This document shows positions 1 through 8,517 of a stretch of DNA of 8,517 nucleotides, one piece after another. A program made the position numbers and the translations under genes. Origin of the DNA: a virus (lineage: Duplodnaviria; Heunggongvirae; Uroviricota; Caudoviricetes); IMG/VR virus record IMGVR_UViG_2619619131_000020, positions 1-8,517 of that record; one strand, given 5' to 3'. Numbering within the stretch: position 1 is the stretch's first letter; every line of letters starts with the position of its first letter. The notes below the pieces were generated by a model. That model had not been told where the DNA came from. It did not search any database and worked only from the letters and a program-made list of their open reading frames with translations.

Positions 1-1513
<1,513 letters not shown>

Positions 1514-1546
1514 GTTCAGCGCGGAGTTTAAGCAGGTGGTGAACTG

Positions 1547-2245
1547 ATGCAGGATATTCACGAAGAAAGTCTGAGCGAGTCGGTTAAATCAGAGCAGTCA
1601 CCGCGGGTGGTACTCTGGGAAATTGACCTGACGGTGCAGGGTGGTGAGCGGTATTTTTTCTGTAATGAGCTGAATGAAAAAGGGGAGCCGGTCACCTGGC
1701 AGGGGCGGAAGTACCAGGCGTACCCGATTGATGGCAGCGGCTTTGAGATGAGCGGGAAGGGCAGCAGTGCCAGACCGTCGCTGACGGTGTCCAATCTGTT
1801 CGGTCTGGTCACCGGGATGGCGGAAGACCTGCAGAGTCTGGTGGGGGCCACGGTGGTCCGCCGCCGGGTGTATGCCCGTTTTCTGGATGCGGTGAATTTC
1901 GTTGCGGGCAATCCGGCGGCGGACCCGGAGCAGGAGTTGAGTGACCGCTGGGTGGTGGAGCAGATGTCGCAGCTGACAGCCATGACGGCCTCGTTTGTGC
2001 TGGCCACACCGACCGAGACGGACGGGGCGCTGTTTCCCGGTCGTATCATGCTGGCGAACACCTGTATGTGGACCTACCGCTCTGATGAGTGTGGTTACAC
2101 GGGCGGGGCTGTGGCGGATGAGTTCGATAAACCCACCACGGATATCCGTAAGGACAGATGCAGCAAGTGCATGCGCGGGTGTGAACTGCGCAGGAATGTC
2201 GGCAATTTTGGCGGTTTCCTTTCCATTAATAAACTTTCGCAGTAA
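1547..2245 (+). CDS. L: Minor tail protein L (lambda gpL-like), 232 aa, apparently intact
   Basis: The 232-aa translation (MQDIHEESLSESVKSEQSPRVVLWEIDLT...GGERYFFCNE...NVGNFGGFLSINKLSQ) matches lambda gpL in length and in conserved blocks as I remember them, including the C-terminal Cys-rich region (CGYTGG...CSKCMRGC). The start overlaps the M stop. Confidence 0.9.
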   Translation: MQDIHEESLSESVKSEQSPRVVLWEIDLTVQGGERYFFCNELNEKGEPVTWQGRKYQAYPIDGSGFEMSGKGSSARPSLTVSNLFGLVTGMAEDLQSLVGATVVRRRVYARFLDAVNFVAGNPAADPEQELSDRWVVEQMSQLTAMTASFVLATPTETDGALFPGRIMLANTCMWTYRSDECGYTGGAVADEFDKPTTDIRKDRCSKCMRGCELRRNVGNFGGFLSINKLSQ

Positions 2246-2255
2246 ATCCCGGTTT

Positions 2256-2999
2256 ATGACACAGACTGAATCAGCGATTCTGGCGCATGCCCGGCGGTGT
2301 GCGCCTGCGGAGTCGTGCGGCTTCGTGATAAGCACGCCGGAGGGGGAGTGGTATATCCCTTGTGTGAATATTTCTGCAGAGCCGGAGGCGTATTTTCGTA
2401 TCGCACCGGAAGACTGGCTGCGGGCAGAGATGCAGGGGGAGATTGTGGCACTGGTCCACAGTCATCCCGGTGGGCTGCCCTGGCTGAGCGAGGCTGACCG
2501 GCGGCTGCAGATAAAAAGCGCACTGCCCTGGTGGCTGGTCTGCCGGGGTGACATTCACAAATTCCGCTGTGTGCCACATCTGACAGGACGGCGCTTTGAG
2601 CACGGGGTGACGGACTGTTACACGCTGTTTCGGGATGCTTATCATCTGGCGGGGACTGAAATGCCGGATTTTCATCGCGAGGATGACTGGTGGCGCAACG
2701 GTCAGAACCTTTACCTGGACAATATGGCGGTCACAGGCTTTTACCGGGTGCCCCTGTCCTCTGCACAGGCGGGCGATATTCTGCTGTGCTGCTTTGGTGC
2801 TTCGGTACCGAACCATGCCGCCATTTACTGCGGCAACGGTGAGCTGCTTCACCATCTGCCTGAACAACTGAGTAAACGGGAGAGGTATTCCGAAAAATGG
2901 CAACGACGAACGCATTCTGTCTGGCGTCACCGCCACTGGCACGCATCTGCCTTCACGGGGATTTACAACGATTTGGCCGCCGCCTCAGCCTGTATGTGA
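2256..2999 (+). CDS. K: Tail tip assembly protein K (lambda gpK-like) with JAB/MPN and NlpC/P60 domain motifs
   Basis: The translation starts MTQTESAILAHARRCAPAESCGFV. A JAMM-type motif HSHPGGLPWLSEAD (H-x-H-x7-S-x2-D) is visible directly, as are NlpC/P60-type catalytic residues (Cys in GVTDCYTLF, His in VPNHAAIY). The start was chosen at the first ATG after the L stop, in frame with ORF 1995-2999. Confidence 0.85.
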   Translation: MTQTESAILAHARRCAPAESCGFVISTPEGEWYIPCVNISAEPEAYFRIAPEDWLRAEMQGEIVALVHSHPGGLPWLSEADRRLQIKSALPWWLVCRGDIHKFRCVPHLTGRRFEHGVTDCYTLFRDAYHLAGTEMPDFHREDDWWRNGQNLYLDNMAVTGFYRVPLSSAQAGDILLCCFGASVPNHAAIYCGNGELLHHLPEQLSKRERYSEKWQRRTHSVWRHRHWHASAFTGIYNDLAAASACM

Positions 3000-3532
3000 A
3001 CACGGCAGCGGAAGCCATTCGCGCCCTGTCGATGCAGATGCCGGGCTTTCGCCGTCAGATGAACGAAGGCTGGTACCAGATACGTATTGCCGGTGATGAC
3101 ACGGCACCGGAGGCGGTGTATGCCCGTCTTACGTCCTTCAGTTATGCCAATGCTGAGGATGAGCAAAAAACGCGCTACAGAGATACCCGCTGGCATGAAG
3201 ATTCCGTGCGTAACCGCTGGTTCAGCGTGATGGCGGGGCCGTCTGTACGCGTGAATGAATGGTTCAGCGCGTATGCGATGGCGGGTGTGGCTTACAGCCG
3301 TGTGTCGACTTTCTCCGGGGATTATCTCCGCGTAACTGACAACAAGGGGAAAACGCACGACGTGCTGACCGGAAGTGATGACGGTTGCCACAGCAACACG
3401 TCTCTGGCGTGGGGGGCTGGCGTGCAGTTTAACCCGACCGAATCCGTGGCCATTGATATTGCTTATGAAGGCTCCGGCAGTGGTGACTGGCGCACTGACG
3501 GTTTCATCGTGGGTATCGGTTATAAATTCTGA
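2897..3532 (+). pseudogene. In-frame chimera: N-terminal ~70 codons of tail assembly protein I fused to the C-terminal ~130 codons of outer-membrane protein Lom; J and the Lom signal peptide are missing
   Basis: N-terminus MATTNAFCLASPPLARICLHGDLQRFGRRL...WYQIRIAGDD resembles the lambda gpI N-terminus. From ~nt 3130 the translation SFSYANAEDEQKTRYRDTRWHEDSVRNRWFSVMAGPSVRVNEWFSAYAMAGVAYSRV...DGFIVGIGYKF matches the Lom/Ail-family beta-barrel C-terminus ending in aromatic F. No J-like ORF (expected >1000 codons) lies between. Confidence 0.7.
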
Positions 3533-3558
3533 TTAGCCAGGTAACACAGTGTTATGAC

Positions 3559-3586
3559 AGCCCGCCGGTTCAGGCGGGCTTTTTTG
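3559..3586 (+). terminator. Rho-independent terminator downstream of the I-lom chimera
   Basis: An 8-bp perfect stem AGCCCGCC (3559-3566) / GGCGGGCT (3573-3580) with a 6-nt loop GGTTCA is followed by a T-run at 3580-3585. Confidence 0.6.
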
Positions 3587-3596
3587 TGGGGTGAAT

Positions 3597-4811
3597 ATGG
3601 CAGTAAAGATTTCAGGTGTGCTGAAGGATGGTACAGGAAAACCGGTACCGGACTGCACCATAGAGCTGAAAGCCACGCGAACGAGTGAGACGGTGATAGT
3701 CACCACGGTGGCGCAGGGGCAGCCGGGGGAAACCGGCAGTTACAGTTTTGATGTGGAGCCGGGGTGGTACCGGGTGACGCTGAACACGGAAGGGTACGCC
3801 CCGTCGTATGTGGGTGACATTCTGGTGAAGGCGGATTCTGAGCCGGGAACGCTGAATAAATTTCTGATGGAACAGGATGAGGTGCAGTATTACCCGAAAG
3901 CGCTTGCAGAGCTGGAAGCGGTGGCAGCGGAAATCCTGAAGCGTGCTGAAGCGTCGGCGGCGAGTGCAGAGGAAGCGAAGGAACGGGCAGAGAATGCCCG
4001 GGGACCGGCGGGCGAGAAGGGGGACACAGGTCCACAGGGTGCCACAGGGGCACAGGGACCAGCCGGGGCAACGGGGGCGGTCGGACCAAAAGGTGAGCCG
4101 GGGCCAAAGGGAGAACGGGGAGAAACAGGTCCACAGGGACCGAAGGGCGATAAAGGTGACCCGGGCGGACCGCCGGGGCCGAAAGGGGATACGGGAGACA
4201 CAGGCCCGGCAGGACCACAGGGGCCGAAGGGAGATACGGGAGACACAGGCCCGGCAGGACCACAGGGGCCGAAGGGAGATACGGGAGACACAGGCCCGGC
4301 AGGTCCGCAGGGACCGAAGGGAGATACGGGAGACACAGGCCCGGCAGGACCACAGGGACCGAAGGGAGATACGGGAGACACAGGCCCGGCAGGACCACAG
4401 GGACCTAAAGGGGATGCGGGAGCTGCAGGCCCGGCAGGGCCACAGGGACCGAAGGGAGATACGGGAGACACAGGCCCGGCAGGACCACAGGGACCGAAGG
4501 GAGATACGGGAGACACAGGTCCGGCAGGACCTCAGGGACCGTCAGGAAGTCCTGACAGCGGACTGTTTGGTGTCGGTTCTTTTGTCCTTGCGGCATATTA
4601 TGCGACGAGTTATTCGGGGGATATGGCACCGGGCTCAGCCATTGCCGGCTCATCACTGTCTGCATGTTGCCTTTCGAATGGTACTCCCCTGGTTGCTTCC
4701 GGTAATGTGGGGGAGACCCGTTTACCGGGCACGTGGCGTGCATGTGGTCCGATGCTATGGACATCATCTCCGGGTATCAGACAGGCAGGATTATTTCAGC
4801 GCATATCATAG
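3597..4811 (+). CDS. stf: Side tail fibre protein (lambda Stf-like N-terminus, collagen-like Gly-X-Y shaft, distinct C-terminal domain)
   Basis: N-terminus [26 protein letters not shown] resembles the lambda Stf N-terminus. Codons ~136-320 are uninterrupted G-X-Y triplets ([13 protein letters not shown]...[15 protein letters not shown] repeated). The C-terminal ~90 aa are non-collagenous ([19 protein letters not shown]...GTWRACGPM...LFQRIS). Start taken at ATG 3597 rather than the in-frame GTG 3591; stop TAG 4809-4811. Confidence 0.8.
4179..4538 (+). repeat. Eight tandem copies of a 45-bp unit (CCGAAGGGAGATACGGGAGACACAGGCCCGGCAGGACCACAGGGR) encoding [15 protein letters not shown] inside stf
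   Basis: Direct reading: units begin at 4179, 4224, 4269, 4314, 4359, 4404, 4449 and 4494. Five are near-identical; the units at 4269, 4404 and 4494 carry a few substitutions. The period is a multiple of 3, so the reading frame is preserved. Confidence 0.85.
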
Positions 4812-4819
4812 AGGAGGTC

Positions 4820-5428
4820 ATGGTGGATAAGGGAAAAGAGATTCTTGCAGTACGAAATGCAGCCAGCAACGAATATGGCGGGATAAACTGTGAGGTGCAG
4901 TTTGAAGACGCGGTGAATGAAAAAGGGGAACAGGTATGGCTGCCGTATACTGCAACGGAAACGGATAATACAGAACACGGAAAAGCATTGTGGTCTGGGC
5001 TGACAGCAGGAACGTACGGAAGTGTGAGTGCCTTTGTCGCCACGGAAGCAGTACTGGAAGCGGCAAAAGCGGCGAAAAGGGAAGAGATTAATATCTGGCG
5101 TGATGTGCAGGAGAATATGGAATACATGATGGAATTCAACGGAAGGAACTGGGATTACGGCAAGAAGACGTTGTCCAGGATAAGCATGACACGCCTGATG
5201 GCAGAGAATAACCGTCTTCCGGAAGGTTTTGCTTGGACCGACGGGGATAATAATGTGGTGCCGGTGACGGCGGCAGACATCATAGCCCTGTCGGATGCGA
5301 CAGAGCAGGCGATGTTTGCGAAGGGGGTGGAGATTAATACACGGCAGTTGCAGATGAAAGCAGAGGTTGAGGCGCTGACAGAGCTGAAGGCGATCCGCAG
5401 TTACGTTGTTGGATGGCCTGCTGGCTGA
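4820..5428 (+). CDS. Putative tail fibre assembly / chaperone protein (DUF4376-like C-terminus), translationally coupled to stf
   Basis: A strong Shine-Dalgarno GAGGAGG at 4811-4817 lies directly after the stf stop, with ATG at 4820 (GTG 4823 is an alternative). The C-terminal block FAWTDGDNNVVPVTAADIIALSDATEQAMFAKGVEINTRQLQMKAEVEALTELKAIRSY fits the pattern I associate with DUF4376 fibre-associated proteins. It is not similar to lambda Tfa. Confidence 0.55.
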   Translation: MVDKGKEILAVRNAASNEYGGINCEVQFEDAVNEKGEQVWLPYTATETDNTEHGKALWSGLTAGTYGSVSAFVATEAVLEAAKAAKREEINIWRDVQENMEYMMEFNGRNWDYGKKTLSRISMTRLMAENNRLPEGFAWTDGDNNVVPVTAADIIALSDATEQAMFAKGVEINTRQLQMKAEVEALTELKAIRSYVVGWPAG

Positions 5429-5457
5429 ATAAAAAAACGGGACCACGACCAGTCCCG
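5429..5457 (-). terminator. Rho-independent terminator for minus-strand transcription (downstream of the ykgJ-like gene and int)
   Basis: Stem CGGGAC (5438-5443) / GTCCCG (5452-5457) with an 8-nt loop. On the minus strand the hairpin is followed by a T7 run (complement of A-run 5431-5437). On the plus strand no T-run follows the hairpin. Confidence 0.55.
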
Positions 5458-5569
5458 GAACCATGAGTTTTAGGGTATTAGTTTGTTATCATAGTTAGCG
5501 TGCTAAGTATGCCATGTCAGGTTGATTAGTGAAGTGATGTTGTTCGCATTTTTGCACGGCGGAGAATAT

Positions 5570-5895
5570 TCAGATTTTTGGAAATCCATATTTTTCCCGT
5601 GCGCGATTACATGCTTCATTTACGATGCTATTTTCGCCGGACATTGCGAATTCCCTGCATGTGGACGGTTTTTGTAAACAGAGCAATATGCGTTTTCTCC
5701 GGGGGGGGCCGGCAAGAGCGCCACATCGGGGATTTTTCTGATTGGTGCCGCGCATACAGCGATGAAAAGGAGATATTTGCTCAGTGAGACTGACCGAAAC
5801 CTTTCCGCCAGCATCGTCAGCTTCTGCCCAGTAAAAAGAGACGCGGAAAATGCACAACAGGCACCACACGTCATGCATGGATTCAGATTGCTCAT
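5570..5895 (-). pseudogene. YkgJ-family (CxxCxxCC, putative zinc/iron-chelating domain) gene interrupted by three frame changes
   Basis: Two overlapping minus-strand ORFs (5620-5895 and 5570-5902) each carry pieces of one family pattern. Frame a gives the N-terminal [10 protein letters not shown] and later CSVYKNRP; frame b gives [15 protein letters not shown]...[27 protein letters not shown] and the C-terminal [27 protein letters not shown]. Switch points coincide with homopolymer runs at plus-strand 5847-5850, 5701-5708 and 5669-5673. Family assignment is from memory of the motif pattern. Confidence 0.5.
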
Positions 5896-6115
5896 AATTC
5901 ACCAGTACAGCTATAAATCGTAAAGAGAACAGCGGTACATCGTATGTAAGAACGTACCGCGGCTGGCTGGTGAACTTCCGATAGTGCGAGTATTGAATGA
6001 TTTCCAGCCGTTACCGATTTTACTATGTTTTAGTAGAACACTTAGACAAAACTGAGACACACAAAGCTTTGTACTGGATTGCTAGGCTTTGTGCTATTCG
6101 ATAGTTTAAGGTCGC

Positions 6116-7273
6116 TCACTCTACCTTTTCATCAAGCCAGTCCGCCCACCACTGCATCATTTCTCTGCGCTTATCGAGATACTGTGCATGGTTGTAAATC
6201 CCGCGCACAGATCCGCCGTTGGCATGTGCAAGTTGCACTTCAATGGCGTCGGCAGGCCATTCGTGCTCGTTCATAATCGTGCTGAATTCATGCCTGAATC
6301 CGTGACCGCTTTCCAGACCTTCATAGCCGATTTGTTTGATCACAAGCAGTACAGCGTTCTCGCAAATTGGCTTCTTCTTATCGTTGCGCCCGGCAAAAAC
6401 AAACTCTGATACTGGTTTGGTGATTGAGCTTAGCATAGTGAGAAGTTCAACTACCTGGTCTGACATAGGAACCACATGAATTTTGCGTCCCTTCATCACA
6501 TTGGCGTCGATGGTGATAATCCTGTTTTCAAAATCGACGTTCTTCCATAGCATGGAACGAAGCTCTTTTGTTCTGAGGGCTGTGTAGCGTAAAACTTTGG
6601 TCGCAATGAGCGATACGATGCTTCCTGAAAATGTTGCCAGTGCTTTGTTAAATGCCGGGATCTGGTCTGCAGGAAGAAACGGGAAGTTTTTCTTGCGGTA
6701 TCCCTTCATGGCGTCAGCAAGGTCAGGTGCCGGGTTATATTTAGCCCTACCAGTAACAATAGCGTAACGGAAAACCTCGCCGCATCTTCTGCGGGCTTTA
6801 TTTGCTCTCTCCATTGCACCGCGATCTTCAAATCTGCGGATTACTTCCAGCAGTTGCATCGGCTCAATATCCTGAATTTCAAGGCCGCCGATGATAGGTA
6901 AAATGTCGTCATCAAACATTTTTGCAAGTTCAGTCGCATACCCTACTGACCATACTTGCTTCTTGTGCTCGTACCATTCCTTGTAAATCGCACTAAAGGA
7001 ATTGTTGTTAGACGAAGCCTTTTTCGCCTTTACCGGATCGATGCCAACCGAGATGTCTTTCCTCGCAGTCCATGCCTTATCCCTTGCCTCCTGCAAAGTC
7101 ATTAGCGGATATTTTCCTACGGTCAGGATTTTCTCCTTACCGTCAATCTTGTAGCGAAGCTGCCATACCTTTTTCCCTGACACAGGGACATAAAGGTACA
7201 GGCCATTACCATCGAGTAGGCGGTATGGTTTTTCTTTCGGCTTTGCTGCTTCAATCTGCTTAACGGTGAGCAT
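6116..7273 (-). CDS. intS: Tyrosine-type site-specific integrase (CPS-53 IntS-like), 385 aa
   Basis: Translation MLTVKQIEAAKPKEKPYRLLDGNGLYLYVPVSGKKVWQLRYKIDGKEKILTVGKYPL... has the C-terminal catalytic signature HGFRHEF (H-x-x-R) and a conserved Tyr in GIYNHAQY. It lies next to tRNA-Arg and yfdC, as IntS does in E. coli K-12. Start taken at ATG 7273 (385 aa) rather than the upstream in-frame GTG 7309. Confidence 0.88.
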   Translation of the reverse strand: MLTVKQIEAAKPKEKPYRLLDGNGLYLYVPVSGKKVWQLRYKIDGKEKILTVGKYPLMTLQEARDKAWTARKDISVGIDPVKAKKASSNNNSFSAIYKEWYEHKKQVWSVGYATELAKMFDDDILPIIGGLEIQDIEPMQLLEVIRRFEDRGAMERANKARRRCGEVFRYAIVTGRAKYNPAPDLADAMKGYRKKNFPFLPADQIPAFNKALATFSGSIVSLIATKVLRYTALRTKELRSMLWKNVDFENRIITIDANVMKGRKIHVVPMSDQVVELLTMLSSITKPVSEFVFAGRNDKKKPICENAVLLVIKQIGYEGLESGHGFRHEFSTIMNEHEWPADAIEVQLAHANGGSVRGIYNHAQYLDKRREMMQWWADWLDEKVE

Positions 7274-7318
7274 GGGTAAAAATCCGGTGGGTAAAATTAT
7301 TTTATCCACTTTTTACCC
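7274..7318 (-). promoter_or_regulatory. Cluster of three GGGTAAAA motifs in the int leader, candidate operator or arm-type sites
   Basis: Direct copies of GGGTAAAA at 7274-7281 and 7289-7296, plus an inverted copy TTTTACCC at 7311-7318; the first copy abuts the int ATG. Function is inferred only. Confidence 0.25.
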
Positions 7319-7434
7319 GTCATGGAGTGCGGCTGTCAACGATCTGACGCGAACCATGACGAACTGTGAATCTACGGAAGGCTTGATATTCAGGGGATTT
7401 TGCGGACTGGTACGGATGGGGGCGAACTGATAAA

Positions 7435-7509
7435 TGGTGTCCCCTGCAGGAATCGAACCTGCAATTAGCCCTTAGGAGGGGCTCGTTATATCCATTTAAC
7501 TAAGAGGAC
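7435..7509 (-). tRNA. argW: tRNA-Arg (anticodon CCU), argW
   Basis: The reverse complement of 7435-7509 is GTCCTCTTAGTTAAATGGATATAACGAGCCCCTCCTAAGGGCTAATTGCAGGTTCGATTCCTGCAGGGGACACCA (75 nt). It has a 7-bp acceptor stem (GTCCTCT/AGGGGAC), anticodon loop CTCCTAA with anticodon CCT, T-loop GGTTCGATTCC and an encoded CCA end. Confidence 0.95.
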
Positions 7510-7520
7510 AATGCGGCATG

Positions 7521-7549
7521 AGTATACCCGCTAATGGAGTGCGGGGTAA
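7521..7549 (-). promoter_or_regulatory. Candidate sigma70 promoter for argW
   Basis: On the minus strand, -35 TTACCC (plus 7544-7549) and -10 TATACT (plus 7521-7526) are separated by a 17-nt spacer; the -10 lies ~12 nt upstream of the mature tRNA 5' end. Sequence-pattern inference only. Confidence 0.3.
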
Positions 7550-7584
7550 GTACGCTGCCGCTCGATTGCTTAAACCCTCGCCAT

Positions 7585-8517
7585 TTATGCCGGGTTTTTA
7601 TAATTTTTCTTAATGTTTTCCGCACGTTCTGCTTTTTGGCGTGCTTCTGCTTTACGCTTATTGCTCATGTCGTTACGAATCTGTGCATGACTCATTAACG
7701 CGAAGATAAAGGTGCCGCCGCAGATGTTCCCCGCTAAAGTAGGTAGTGCGAAGGGCCAGATGAAATCGCTCCAGTGCAGCGTACCGTTAAACACCAGATA
7801 GAGGATTTCAACAGAACCGACCACGATATGGGTGGTGTCACCCAGGGCAATAAGCCAGGTCATCAATATAATCACCACAATCTTTGCCGCACCCGCTGCA
7901 GGAAACATCCAAACCATAGTGGCGATCAGCCAGCCGGAAATGATCGCGTTGGCAAACATCTCGCTGGGGGTGTTCTTCATCACATCCATGCCGATTTTGA
8001 CAAATGCATCGCGAGTTTCTTCATTGAAGATAGGCATATATTCAAATGCCCACGCCGCAATACCTGTCCCGAGAATATTACCCAGCAGCACGACGCCCCA
8101 TAACCGTATAAGTAAGCCGACGTTGCTCATTGTCGGTTTTTGCATGACGGGTAGTACCGCAGTCACGGTATTTTCGGTAAATAATTGCTGGCGGGCCATA
8201 ATGACGATAATAAAACCAAAGGTATAACCGAGATTCTCCAGCAAGAAGCTGCCCGGCACACCTTCCAGTTCGACTTGAAATATCCCTTTTGCCAGTAACG
8301 AAGCGCCCATCGACAGACCCGCCGCAATGGCTGACCACAGTAGCGCCATTGCGTCGCGTTCCAGCTCTTTTTCACCATCCTGGCGGATATGCTCATGAAT
8401 TGCCATCGCCCGGGAGGGGAGTCGGTCTTCATCTATTTCTATTTTTTTGCCGCGCTCTTTTTCTTCGCTCTCAACTTCAATTTCGTCGCTGTGTTGATCA
8501 ATTTTGTCGTTGTCCAT
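7585..8517 (-). CDS. yfdC: Formate/nitrite transporter family inner-membrane protein YfdC, 310 aa
   Basis: The 310-aa translation MDNDKIDQHSDEIEVESEEKERGKKIEIDEDRLPS... is followed by multiple hydrophobic transmembrane segments, consistent with E. coli YfdC. Its position next to argW fits the K-12 gene order yfdC-argW-intS. The start codon is the last three bases of the window, so an upstream extension cannot be excluded. Confidence 0.88.
   Translation of the reverse strand: MDNDKIDQHSDEIEVESEEKERGKKIEIDEDRLPSRAMAIHEHIRQDGEKELERDAMALLWSAIAAGLSMGASLLAKGIFQVELEGVPGSFLLENLGYTFGFIIVIMARQQLFTENTVTAVLPVMQKPTMSNVGLLIRLWGVVLLGNILGTGIAAWAFEYMPIFNEETRDAFVKIGMDVMKNTPSEMFANAIISGWLIATMVWMFPAAGAAKIVVIILMTWLIALGDTTHIVVGSVEILYLVFNGTLHWSDFIWPFALPTLAGNICGGTFIFALMSHAQIRNDMSNKRKAEARQKAERAENIKKNYKNPA

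Follow-up and report, generated by a model that had tools for sequence, protein, structure and literature searches.

What is an apparently complete tail fibre gene doing in a prophage that no longer has a tail? The question is raised by the first 8,517 nucleotides (nt) of IMG/VR virus record IMGVR_UViG_2619619131_000020 (this whole stretch of Caudoviricetes DNA is termed 'the window' below), and more precisely by the open reading frame (ORF) at positions 3597-4811 of its plus strand. The gene there is intact and encodes a phage side tail fibre with a collagen stalk; a helper gene lies alongside, and the pair is, taken as a whole, very probably the entire host-recognition module of a lambdoid phage, two genes in all, stranded in a gutted prophage. 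Fibres of this type have already been described in prophages of Escherichia coli, and the copy in the window is a real but ordinary example of a published class. The parts of the module are:

3597-4811 (stop codon included), + strand: stf-like side tail fibre gene (ORF list; phrog_366 'tail fiber protein', E 5e-103)
3597-3998, + strand: N-terminal Stf collar or anchor domain ('PfN'), amino acids (aa) 1-134 (PF08400), with a beta-sandwich at aa 1 to about 91, a linker and a short helical segment
4002-4553, + strand: collagen-like triple-helix shaft, aa 136-319 (PF01391, triplet count, and collagen chains as the top PDB sequence matches)
4160-4541, + strand: 45-nt tandem repeat, 8.5 copies of a unit encoding 15 aa each (Tandem Repeats Finder: 91% matches, 0 indels)
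4554-4808, + strand: C-terminal distal domain ('knob') of 85 aa, aa 320-404, with motifs VGSF...PGTWRxC...GLFQRIS, predicted to be a small six-stranded beta domain
4811-4817, + strand: Shine-Dalgarno sequence GAGGAGG of the next gene, overlapping the stf stop codon and ending 2 nt before the ATG (read from the sequence)
4820-5428, + strand: gene for a DUF4376 protein of 202 aa, presumed to be a tail fibre assembly chaperone (PF14301; phrog_1141, E 1.2e-79)

The integrity of the fibre gene is the point on which most of the argument turns. The ORF list gives an open frame of 404 codons, encoding 404 aa, and an intact lambdoid prophage of E. coli S1-CAM-01-A carries, directly after its J and lom genes, a fibre of the same length that is 99% identical and has an identical C-terminus. 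At the nucleotide level the N-terminal and C-terminal domains of the two genes are 100% identical, and all 14 differing codons fall within aa 225-252 of the repeat. An initial annotation of the locus had called the gene intact, and had itself raised the doubt that the last 90 or so residues might be frameshifted relative to full-length homologues; the call holds and the doubt falls, as the C-terminus proved to be in frame when checked against the intact homologues. The same domain, in the same frame, also ends the 523-aa fibre of PhiR5_1 and the 479-aa ORF-401 protein of P-EibA, with 31-37% identity to the knob and with invariant G, PG-W and LFQR positions. PhiR5_1 is a deposited complete phage genome with E. 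coli C as its listed host, whose status as an infectious phage is that given by its GenBank record alone; a literature search for it found no paper.

At its N-terminus the fibre carries a lambda-type anchor. Residues 1-134 cover the full Pfam profile of the 'Prophage tail fibre N-terminal' family PF08400 (E 3.6e-42), a CarboxypepD_reg-like fold is also assigned to the domain, and a PDB sequence search matched residues 1-91 to 9e7m_Ta, the solved collar domain of Ur-lambda Stf (residues 1-94; E 8.5e-30). The initial annotation had recognized the lambda Stf anchor and confined it to about 30 residues, which is too few, since the similarity to lambda orf-401 found by BLASTP spans 129 residues at 53% identity. 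In Ur-lambda, the place where the gpV and gpM rings meet is encircled by a collar of 12 StfN copies (PMC12617516). Fibres of the lambda Stf type share this PF08400 collar, which the window fibre possesses, and a late-operon position directly downstream of J and lom, which its gene also occupies (a lom remnant and then stf in the window; L-K-I-J-lom-stf in intact relatives). Parts of the stf-DUF4376 stretch are matched in 4316 of 5426 complete E. coli genomes, while 11 of the 5426 carry at least 80% of it.

The shaft begins at aa 136, directly after PfN, and consists, by direct count, of 61 Gly-X-Y triplets in two uninterrupted runs (19 at aa 136-192 and 42 at aa 194-319), for a total of 183 residues; the initial annotation, which had placed the gene at the correct coordinates, had put the collagen-like shaft at about 185. 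A single break, GDPGGPPG (aa 187-194), stands between the two runs, and Pfam recognizes collagen repeats from aa 135 (E 3.1e-28). The repetitive DNA also leaves long ORFs of 208-295 aa in another frame and on the other strand (3943-4830 on the plus strand, 3700-4398 and 3890-4516 on the minus strand). These were rejected as genes: they are Pro/Arg/Gly-rich readings of the 45-nt unit, best taken as by-products of a stop-free, GC-rich repeat, and are without independent support.

The 45-nt repeat is the source of the length polymorphism that is seen between alleles of the fibre. One allele (L006) has exactly two 15-aa units (30 aa) fewer than the window copy; a second (L007) has extra repeat units, a clearly diverged N-terminal domain and a C-terminal domain that differs at few positions; and in PM4-5 the N-terminal domain is diverged and the C-terminal domain nearly identical. 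The alleles are thus mosaic, and since they combine changes in repeat number with the exchange of modules, the initial suggestion that such fibres can be reassorted by recombination is supported, both by the mosaicism and by length differences that amount to whole 15-aa units. As a separate observation, most database copies of the C-terminal part of the fibre are 'partial' proteins at contig ends, which suggests that short-read assemblies routinely break inside the collagen repeat; draft genomes would then probably under-count the family and mis-annotate its members.

The distal domain is the least familiar part of the protein. No family was assigned to the last 85 or so residues by the Pfam search, and BLASTP found no similarity between the fibre C-terminus and lambda orf-314, in keeping with the original statement that this end of the fibre (85 aa, against the 90 or so first given) is unlike that of lambda Stf. 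A word-index protein search with the domain alone returned five close, mostly partial, E. coli proteins. A profile built from three sequences gave 22 matches and recovered all three input types at E 1e-31 to 1e-40, and an exhaustive scan with HMMER, over 1.84 billion representatives, found only about five true relatives at E<=1e-3 (about 48% identity), all of which have collagen followed by ...PGTWRxC...GLFQRIS. Because the scan of representatives gave so few, the knob family appears to be a small one, and no function could be transferred from it by sequence comparison. An AF2 monomer model, built from 11 sequences, shows a six-stranded beta domain at moderate confidence (pLDDT 70.6), and a Foldseek search of predicted viral structures with it returned 13 matches at E<=1e-3 (E 2e-5 to 1e-3; TM about 0.5-0.6), most of them annotated as tail fibre proteins of Pseudomonas phages, Aeromonas phages and roseophages. 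Those matches, together with the terminal position of the domain, support the view that the modelled knob would be the fibre tip. It is presumed to serve as both trimerization nucleus and receptor-binding tip, and, by analogy with the PfC domain of EPclA (shown to be a trimerization domain), it probably sets the register of the collagen triple helix.

The database also holds a 194-aa protein (P0023), from another E. coli remnant, that is a chimera of the N-terminus of a terminase large subunit, an out-of-frame stretch and the last 32 residues of the knob; it stems from an independent deletion that removed most of the fibre gene.

Immediately downstream of the fibre gene, with a gap of 8 nt between the stf stop codon (4809-4811) and its own ATG at 4820, lies the gene for the DUF4376 protein. 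The PF14301 domain occupies the C-terminal half of this protein, as in other members of the family (aa 81-188; E 1e-16, 61.7 bits against a cutoff of 25), and an AF2 model of the protein has a pLDDT of 93. A 100%-identical protein of 202 aa is present in the database (P0034), and the gene that follows the PhiR5_1 fibre, annotated as a tail fiber assembly protein, encodes a product that is 42% identical. E. coli, Salmonella, Citrobacter, Cronobacter and Klebsiella all commonly carry homologues. The helper co-varies with the fibre tip: fibres with the knob are followed by a gene of about 190-200 aa in PhiR5_1, P-EibA and the L006 and L007 alleles, and in PhiR5_1, L006 and L007 the homology of that partner to DUF4376 proteins is demonstrated or annotated.

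Fibre activity depends on DUF4376-domain proteins encoded after the fibre gene in the case of Alteromonas phage V22 and of the Campylobacter CJIE1 H-fibre, and a role as transient caps has also been suggested for DUF4376-domain fibre partners. By analogy, the protein in the window is presumed to be a folding and assembly chaperone of the fibre. The 'coupled chaperone' of the initial annotation therefore stands in so far as the gene is closely coupled and its family includes fibre chaperones supported by experiment, and needs correction in so far as a lambda Tfa was meant: the protein has no similarity to lambda Tfa, PF02413 had no match in the Pfam search, and DUF4376 is the only match found where lambda Stf is followed by an assembly protein of the Tfa family (Caudo_TAP). 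A PDB sequence search with the DUF4376 protein found nothing. In close relatives, RefSeq starts the gene at an upstream ATG equivalent to position 4757, which makes it overlap stf by 55 nt. The start at 4820 is favoured here because of the strong GAGGAGG at 4811-4817, the 202-aa gene call in ENA (P0034), and the homologues in PhiR5_1 and PM4-5 that start right after the fibre stop codon.

Armed with these assignments, the fibre can be set against those already described. Ghosh et al. (2012; PLoS One 7:e37872, PMC3368898) defined four classes of E. coli prophage collagen-like proteins, EPclA-D, all of which have PfN and collagen and in which a GXPGGPXG (G-X-P-G-G-P-X-G) break is frequent; EPclA and EPclB have a 'PCoil' and a 'PfC' domain, EPclC proteins often lack PCoil and have an unrelated C-terminus, and P-EibA ORF-401 (AAF63232) is listed as an EPclC. 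The window fibre shows the general pattern (PfN, then a Gly-X-Y region with its GDPGGPPG break), has neither the PCoil of about 110 aa nor PfC (PF06820 had no match in Pfam), and so has the composition of EPclC, with PfN running straight into collagen, no long Ala/Ser-rich PCoil and a C-terminus that is not the PfC of Pfam. Because its N-terminal 141 aa are 94% identical to those of P-EibA ORF-401, and because the C-terminal domain family is common to both, the fibre is, as judged from its sequence, an EPclC-type protein. The two proteins further share the VGSF, PGTWRA and LFQRI motifs, and each is followed by a helper gene of about 190-200 aa. They differ in that the C-terminal domain of ORF-401 is only about 31% identical to the window knob. 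The collagen of the listed EPclC members, and that of PhiR5_1, is split into two blocks by a 'Pf2' insert (QKGVVQLSS...ATPKAVK), whereas the window fibre lacks the insert and has one continuous collagen region of 183 aa.

The biochemically characterized EPclA and EPclB of O157:H7 prophages also have PfN and a collagen stalk, and the collagen-stalked, trimeric 'dumbbell' shown for EPclA would be the best physical model for the window fibre; unlike it, however, they have their PCoil of about 110 aa and PfC (PF06820), and the product of their next gene is a small 'phage tail fiber C-terminal domain' protein. Lambda (Ur-lambda) Stf shares with the window fibre the slot after lom, a near-identical lom-stf terminator, a homologous collar domain and, presumably, attachment to the same gpV/gpM junction. 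In contrast, its shaft is a long Ala/Ser-rich coiled coil in place of 61 Gly-X-Y triplets, its tip is the OmpC-binding, T4 gp37-like distal region to which orf-314 belongs and which the window fibre does not resemble, and its helper is Tfa rather than DUF4376. Finally, the DUF4376 chaperones of Alteromonas phages V22 (gp27) and A5 (gp9) and of Campylobacter CJIE1 resemble the window protein in their C-terminal DUF4376 domain, their position directly after the fibre gene and their similar size, and differ from it in their unrelated hosts and non-collagen fibres, with similarity limited to the Pfam domain.

The state of the surrounding element could be read by mapping the window with blastn onto the intact S1-CAM-01-A prophage (L003; terminase to J-lom), which gave four collinear blocks separated by three losses. 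Block 1-1122 holds the end of A, W and the N-terminus of the portal gene, and is followed by a gap in which about 4.2 kb has been lost, from the portal C-terminus to FII and including the capsid gene E. Block 1117-1387 lies inside FII, and the gap that follows has cost about 5.4 kb (Z, U, V, G, T, H and the N-terminus of M). Block 1386-3130 (L003 9292-7548) holds the C-terminus of M, L, K and the N-terminus of I, with L (1547-2245) and K (2256-2999) still full length; the third gap removed about 4.5 kb (the C-terminus of I, J and the N-terminus of lom). Block 3129-5895 (L003 3020-249) then carries the C-terminus of lom, stf, the DUF4376 gene and a ykgJ-like gene. The junctions, that between FII and M at 1386-1387 and that between I and lom at 3129/3130 included, show an overlap (microhomology) of only 2-6 nt. 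The scars of these deletions, and the hairpins that bound the fibre module, are:

491-1513, + strand: fusion ORF of the portal N-terminus and FII, a deletion scar with its junction near aa 209 (1117-1122)
2897-3532, + strand: I-lom fusion ORF, a deletion scar in which the first 78 or so codons of I (tail assembly) run at 3129/3130 into lom, of which the C-terminal two-thirds remain (Pfam: Lambda_tail_I at aa 15-69, Ail_Lom at aa 77-211)
3559-3586, + strand: intrinsic terminator between lom and stf (terminator scan), an 8-bp GC-rich stem and a 6-nt loop (hairpin 3559-3580) followed by a T-run
5438-5457, - strand: hairpin and T-run (terminator scan), the terminator of the convergent ykgJ-like gene, at which the fibre module ends

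Farther right come intS (6116-7309, minus strand), a tRNA-Arg(CCT) gene (7435-7509, minus strand) and yfdC, and a complete prophage of E. coli F2_81 has the same order of stf, cargo and intS-argW-yfdC. On the strength of the three deletions and of this layout, the element is a gutted lambdoid prophage integrated at argW by an IntS-type integrase. The fibre had been described from the outset as 'orphaned from its tail', and it is: the deletions took V, G, T, H, most of M and J, and since capsid genes, Z to H, and the I-J-lom interval have all been removed in this way, the tail to which it would attach is gone. An exact search for the I-lom junction, with one genome per species, gave 0 matches, and neither the window in one piece nor its deletion structure is present in any of the 5426 complete E. 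coli genomes, among which the best identity to the intS-argW-yfdC backbone (window 5900-8517) is 98.1%. Between the fibre module and intS, the ykgJ-family cysteine-cluster gene (5570-5902, minus strand) is a pseudogene in two overlapping frames, which differs from the intact S1-CAM-01-A copy by three frameshifting lesions: a T-run shortened by 1 nt, a C-run lengthened by 1 nt and a loss of 4 nt.

The hairpin upstream of stf had been taken as a terminator of the fibre gene's own. It is real (hairpin 3559-3580 and T-run; RNA fold -20.4 kcal/mol, z = -2.5), but it is an ordinary, conserved lom terminator that lambda has as well. The 64-nt spacer between lom and stf is nearly identical in lambda and in S1-CAM-01-A, F2_81 and PM4-5 (every intact relative examined); because of this the hairpin is nothing special to the window copy, and is the standard lom terminator of lambdoid phages rather than something acquired by an orphan gene. 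A scan found no sigma-70-like promoter upstream of stf on the plus strand.

The identities of the domains, the open reading frame, the deletions and the mosaicism of the alleles are thus directly demonstrated. From these data we infer trimerization of the fibre, its dependence on the chaperone, receptor binding by the knob and the absence of a present function, and a coherent picture of the module can be proposed. Three chains would each contribute an N-terminal collar domain, clamping the gpV/gpM ring junction as in Ur-lambda, and a short helical neck would lead into the collagen triple helix of about 183 residues, some 50 nm long (the rise of such a helix is about 0.29 nm per residue). The small, beta-rich knob would nucleate trimerization and contact the host surface, and the fibre would be folded and assembled with the help of the DUF4376 protein as its translationally coupled chaperone. 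With the capsid, tail-tube, tape-measure and J genes removed, the element itself would make no tail on which the fibre could be mounted. The module would most likely be a still-undecayed passenger, available for recombination with related lambdoid phages and possibly for use by them.

Other readings of the ORF and of its survival have to be weighed against this one. The gene might be a decayed pseudogene, its C-terminal 90 or so residues an out-of-frame read-through; the collagen repeat does keep several phases open over long stretches, on either strand, and a slip within a 45-nt repeat is conceivable. Such a reading is improbable in the extreme, as the 85 C-terminal residues are conserved as protein (31-48% identity over diverged alleles and phages, with invariant G, P-G-x-W and L-F-Q-R motifs) and 100% identical in an intact prophage, and the knob model folds as a beta domain that resembles other tail fibres; the alignments with the intact-prophage fibre, PhiR5_1, P-EibA and the alleles led to its rejection. 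Scarcely better placed, and still very improbable, is the idea of a bacterial collagen-like surface adhesin of the Scl or Lcl kind, co-opted and independent of any phage, which draws on sub-threshold NCBIfam matches to Lcl, SclA and SclB. These matches span the Gly-X-Y region only and score far below the curated cutoffs (for example, 164 bits against 500), the N-terminus of the protein is a tail-collar domain and not a signal peptide or anchor, and the gene always lies in the J-lom-stf slot of prophages; the adhesin reading was discarded on those scores.

A different alternative accepts the fibre for what it is and asks why it is whole. The module might have been kept by selection, working in trans: expressed upon induction of a co-resident lambdoid prophage (through late transcription or a compatible Q antiterminator), it would be mounted by its collar domain on foreign gpV/gpM tails and change their adsorption range. 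The collar is indeed highly conserved in lambdoid prophages (53% identity to lambda and 94% to P-EibA, with the part-matches in 4316 of 5426 genomes), and neither stf nor the DUF4376 gene has suffered, whereas the ykgJ-like gene and three stretches of the prophage are damaged or deleted. Nevertheless, we regard selection in trans as unlikely: the lom terminator precedes stf and the promoter scan of the plus strand was negative, the coding sequence is so near to that of the intact prophage that its intactness needs no selection, and the remnant represented by P0023 lost most of the same fibre gene, so that retention is not consistent. A stranded, undecayed host-recognition module is still the reading that accounts best for the locus, and several points weigh against it. 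PfN and the knob are encoded by nucleotide sequences fully identical to their counterparts in an intact prophage, which gives no signal that would separate recent stranding from selection; the region upstream of gene A, with the late promoter, lies outside the window; trimerization of the stf product is predicted and transcription of the gene hypothetical; and a chaperone role for the enterobacterial DUF4376 subfamily draws, by analogy, on distant members of the family. On balance, intactness seems explained well enough by near identity to a functional copy, and there is no evidence of a current benefit to the host.

One further proposal, which we would rate as a long shot, is that the stranded fibre-chaperone pair is not inert at all, being expressed when co-resident lambdoid prophages are induced and mounted on their virions because its collar domain would fit the conserved gpV/gpM junction of lambdoid tails, and that the knob is a new minimal domain for receptor binding and for the registering of collagen. 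If that were true, a dead prophage would reprogramme the host range of live ones.

As matters stand, the locus leaves current understanding unchanged, and its main value lies in annotation and 'bookkeeping'. Near-identical proteins are already in RefSeq under the generic name 'prophage tail fiber N-terminal domain-containing protein', and can be named more precisely as EPclC-type collagen fibres. The knob, for which there is no family model or solved structure, recurs in the fibres of E. coli phages, and both it (85 aa) and its DUF4376 partner (202 aa) are compact, making the pair a possible system for studying how a C-terminal domain registers collagen and for swapping fibre tips. Beyond that, the locus is an example of a defective prophage in which a host-range module has stayed whole, as such modules do, and can recombine through its collagen repeats.
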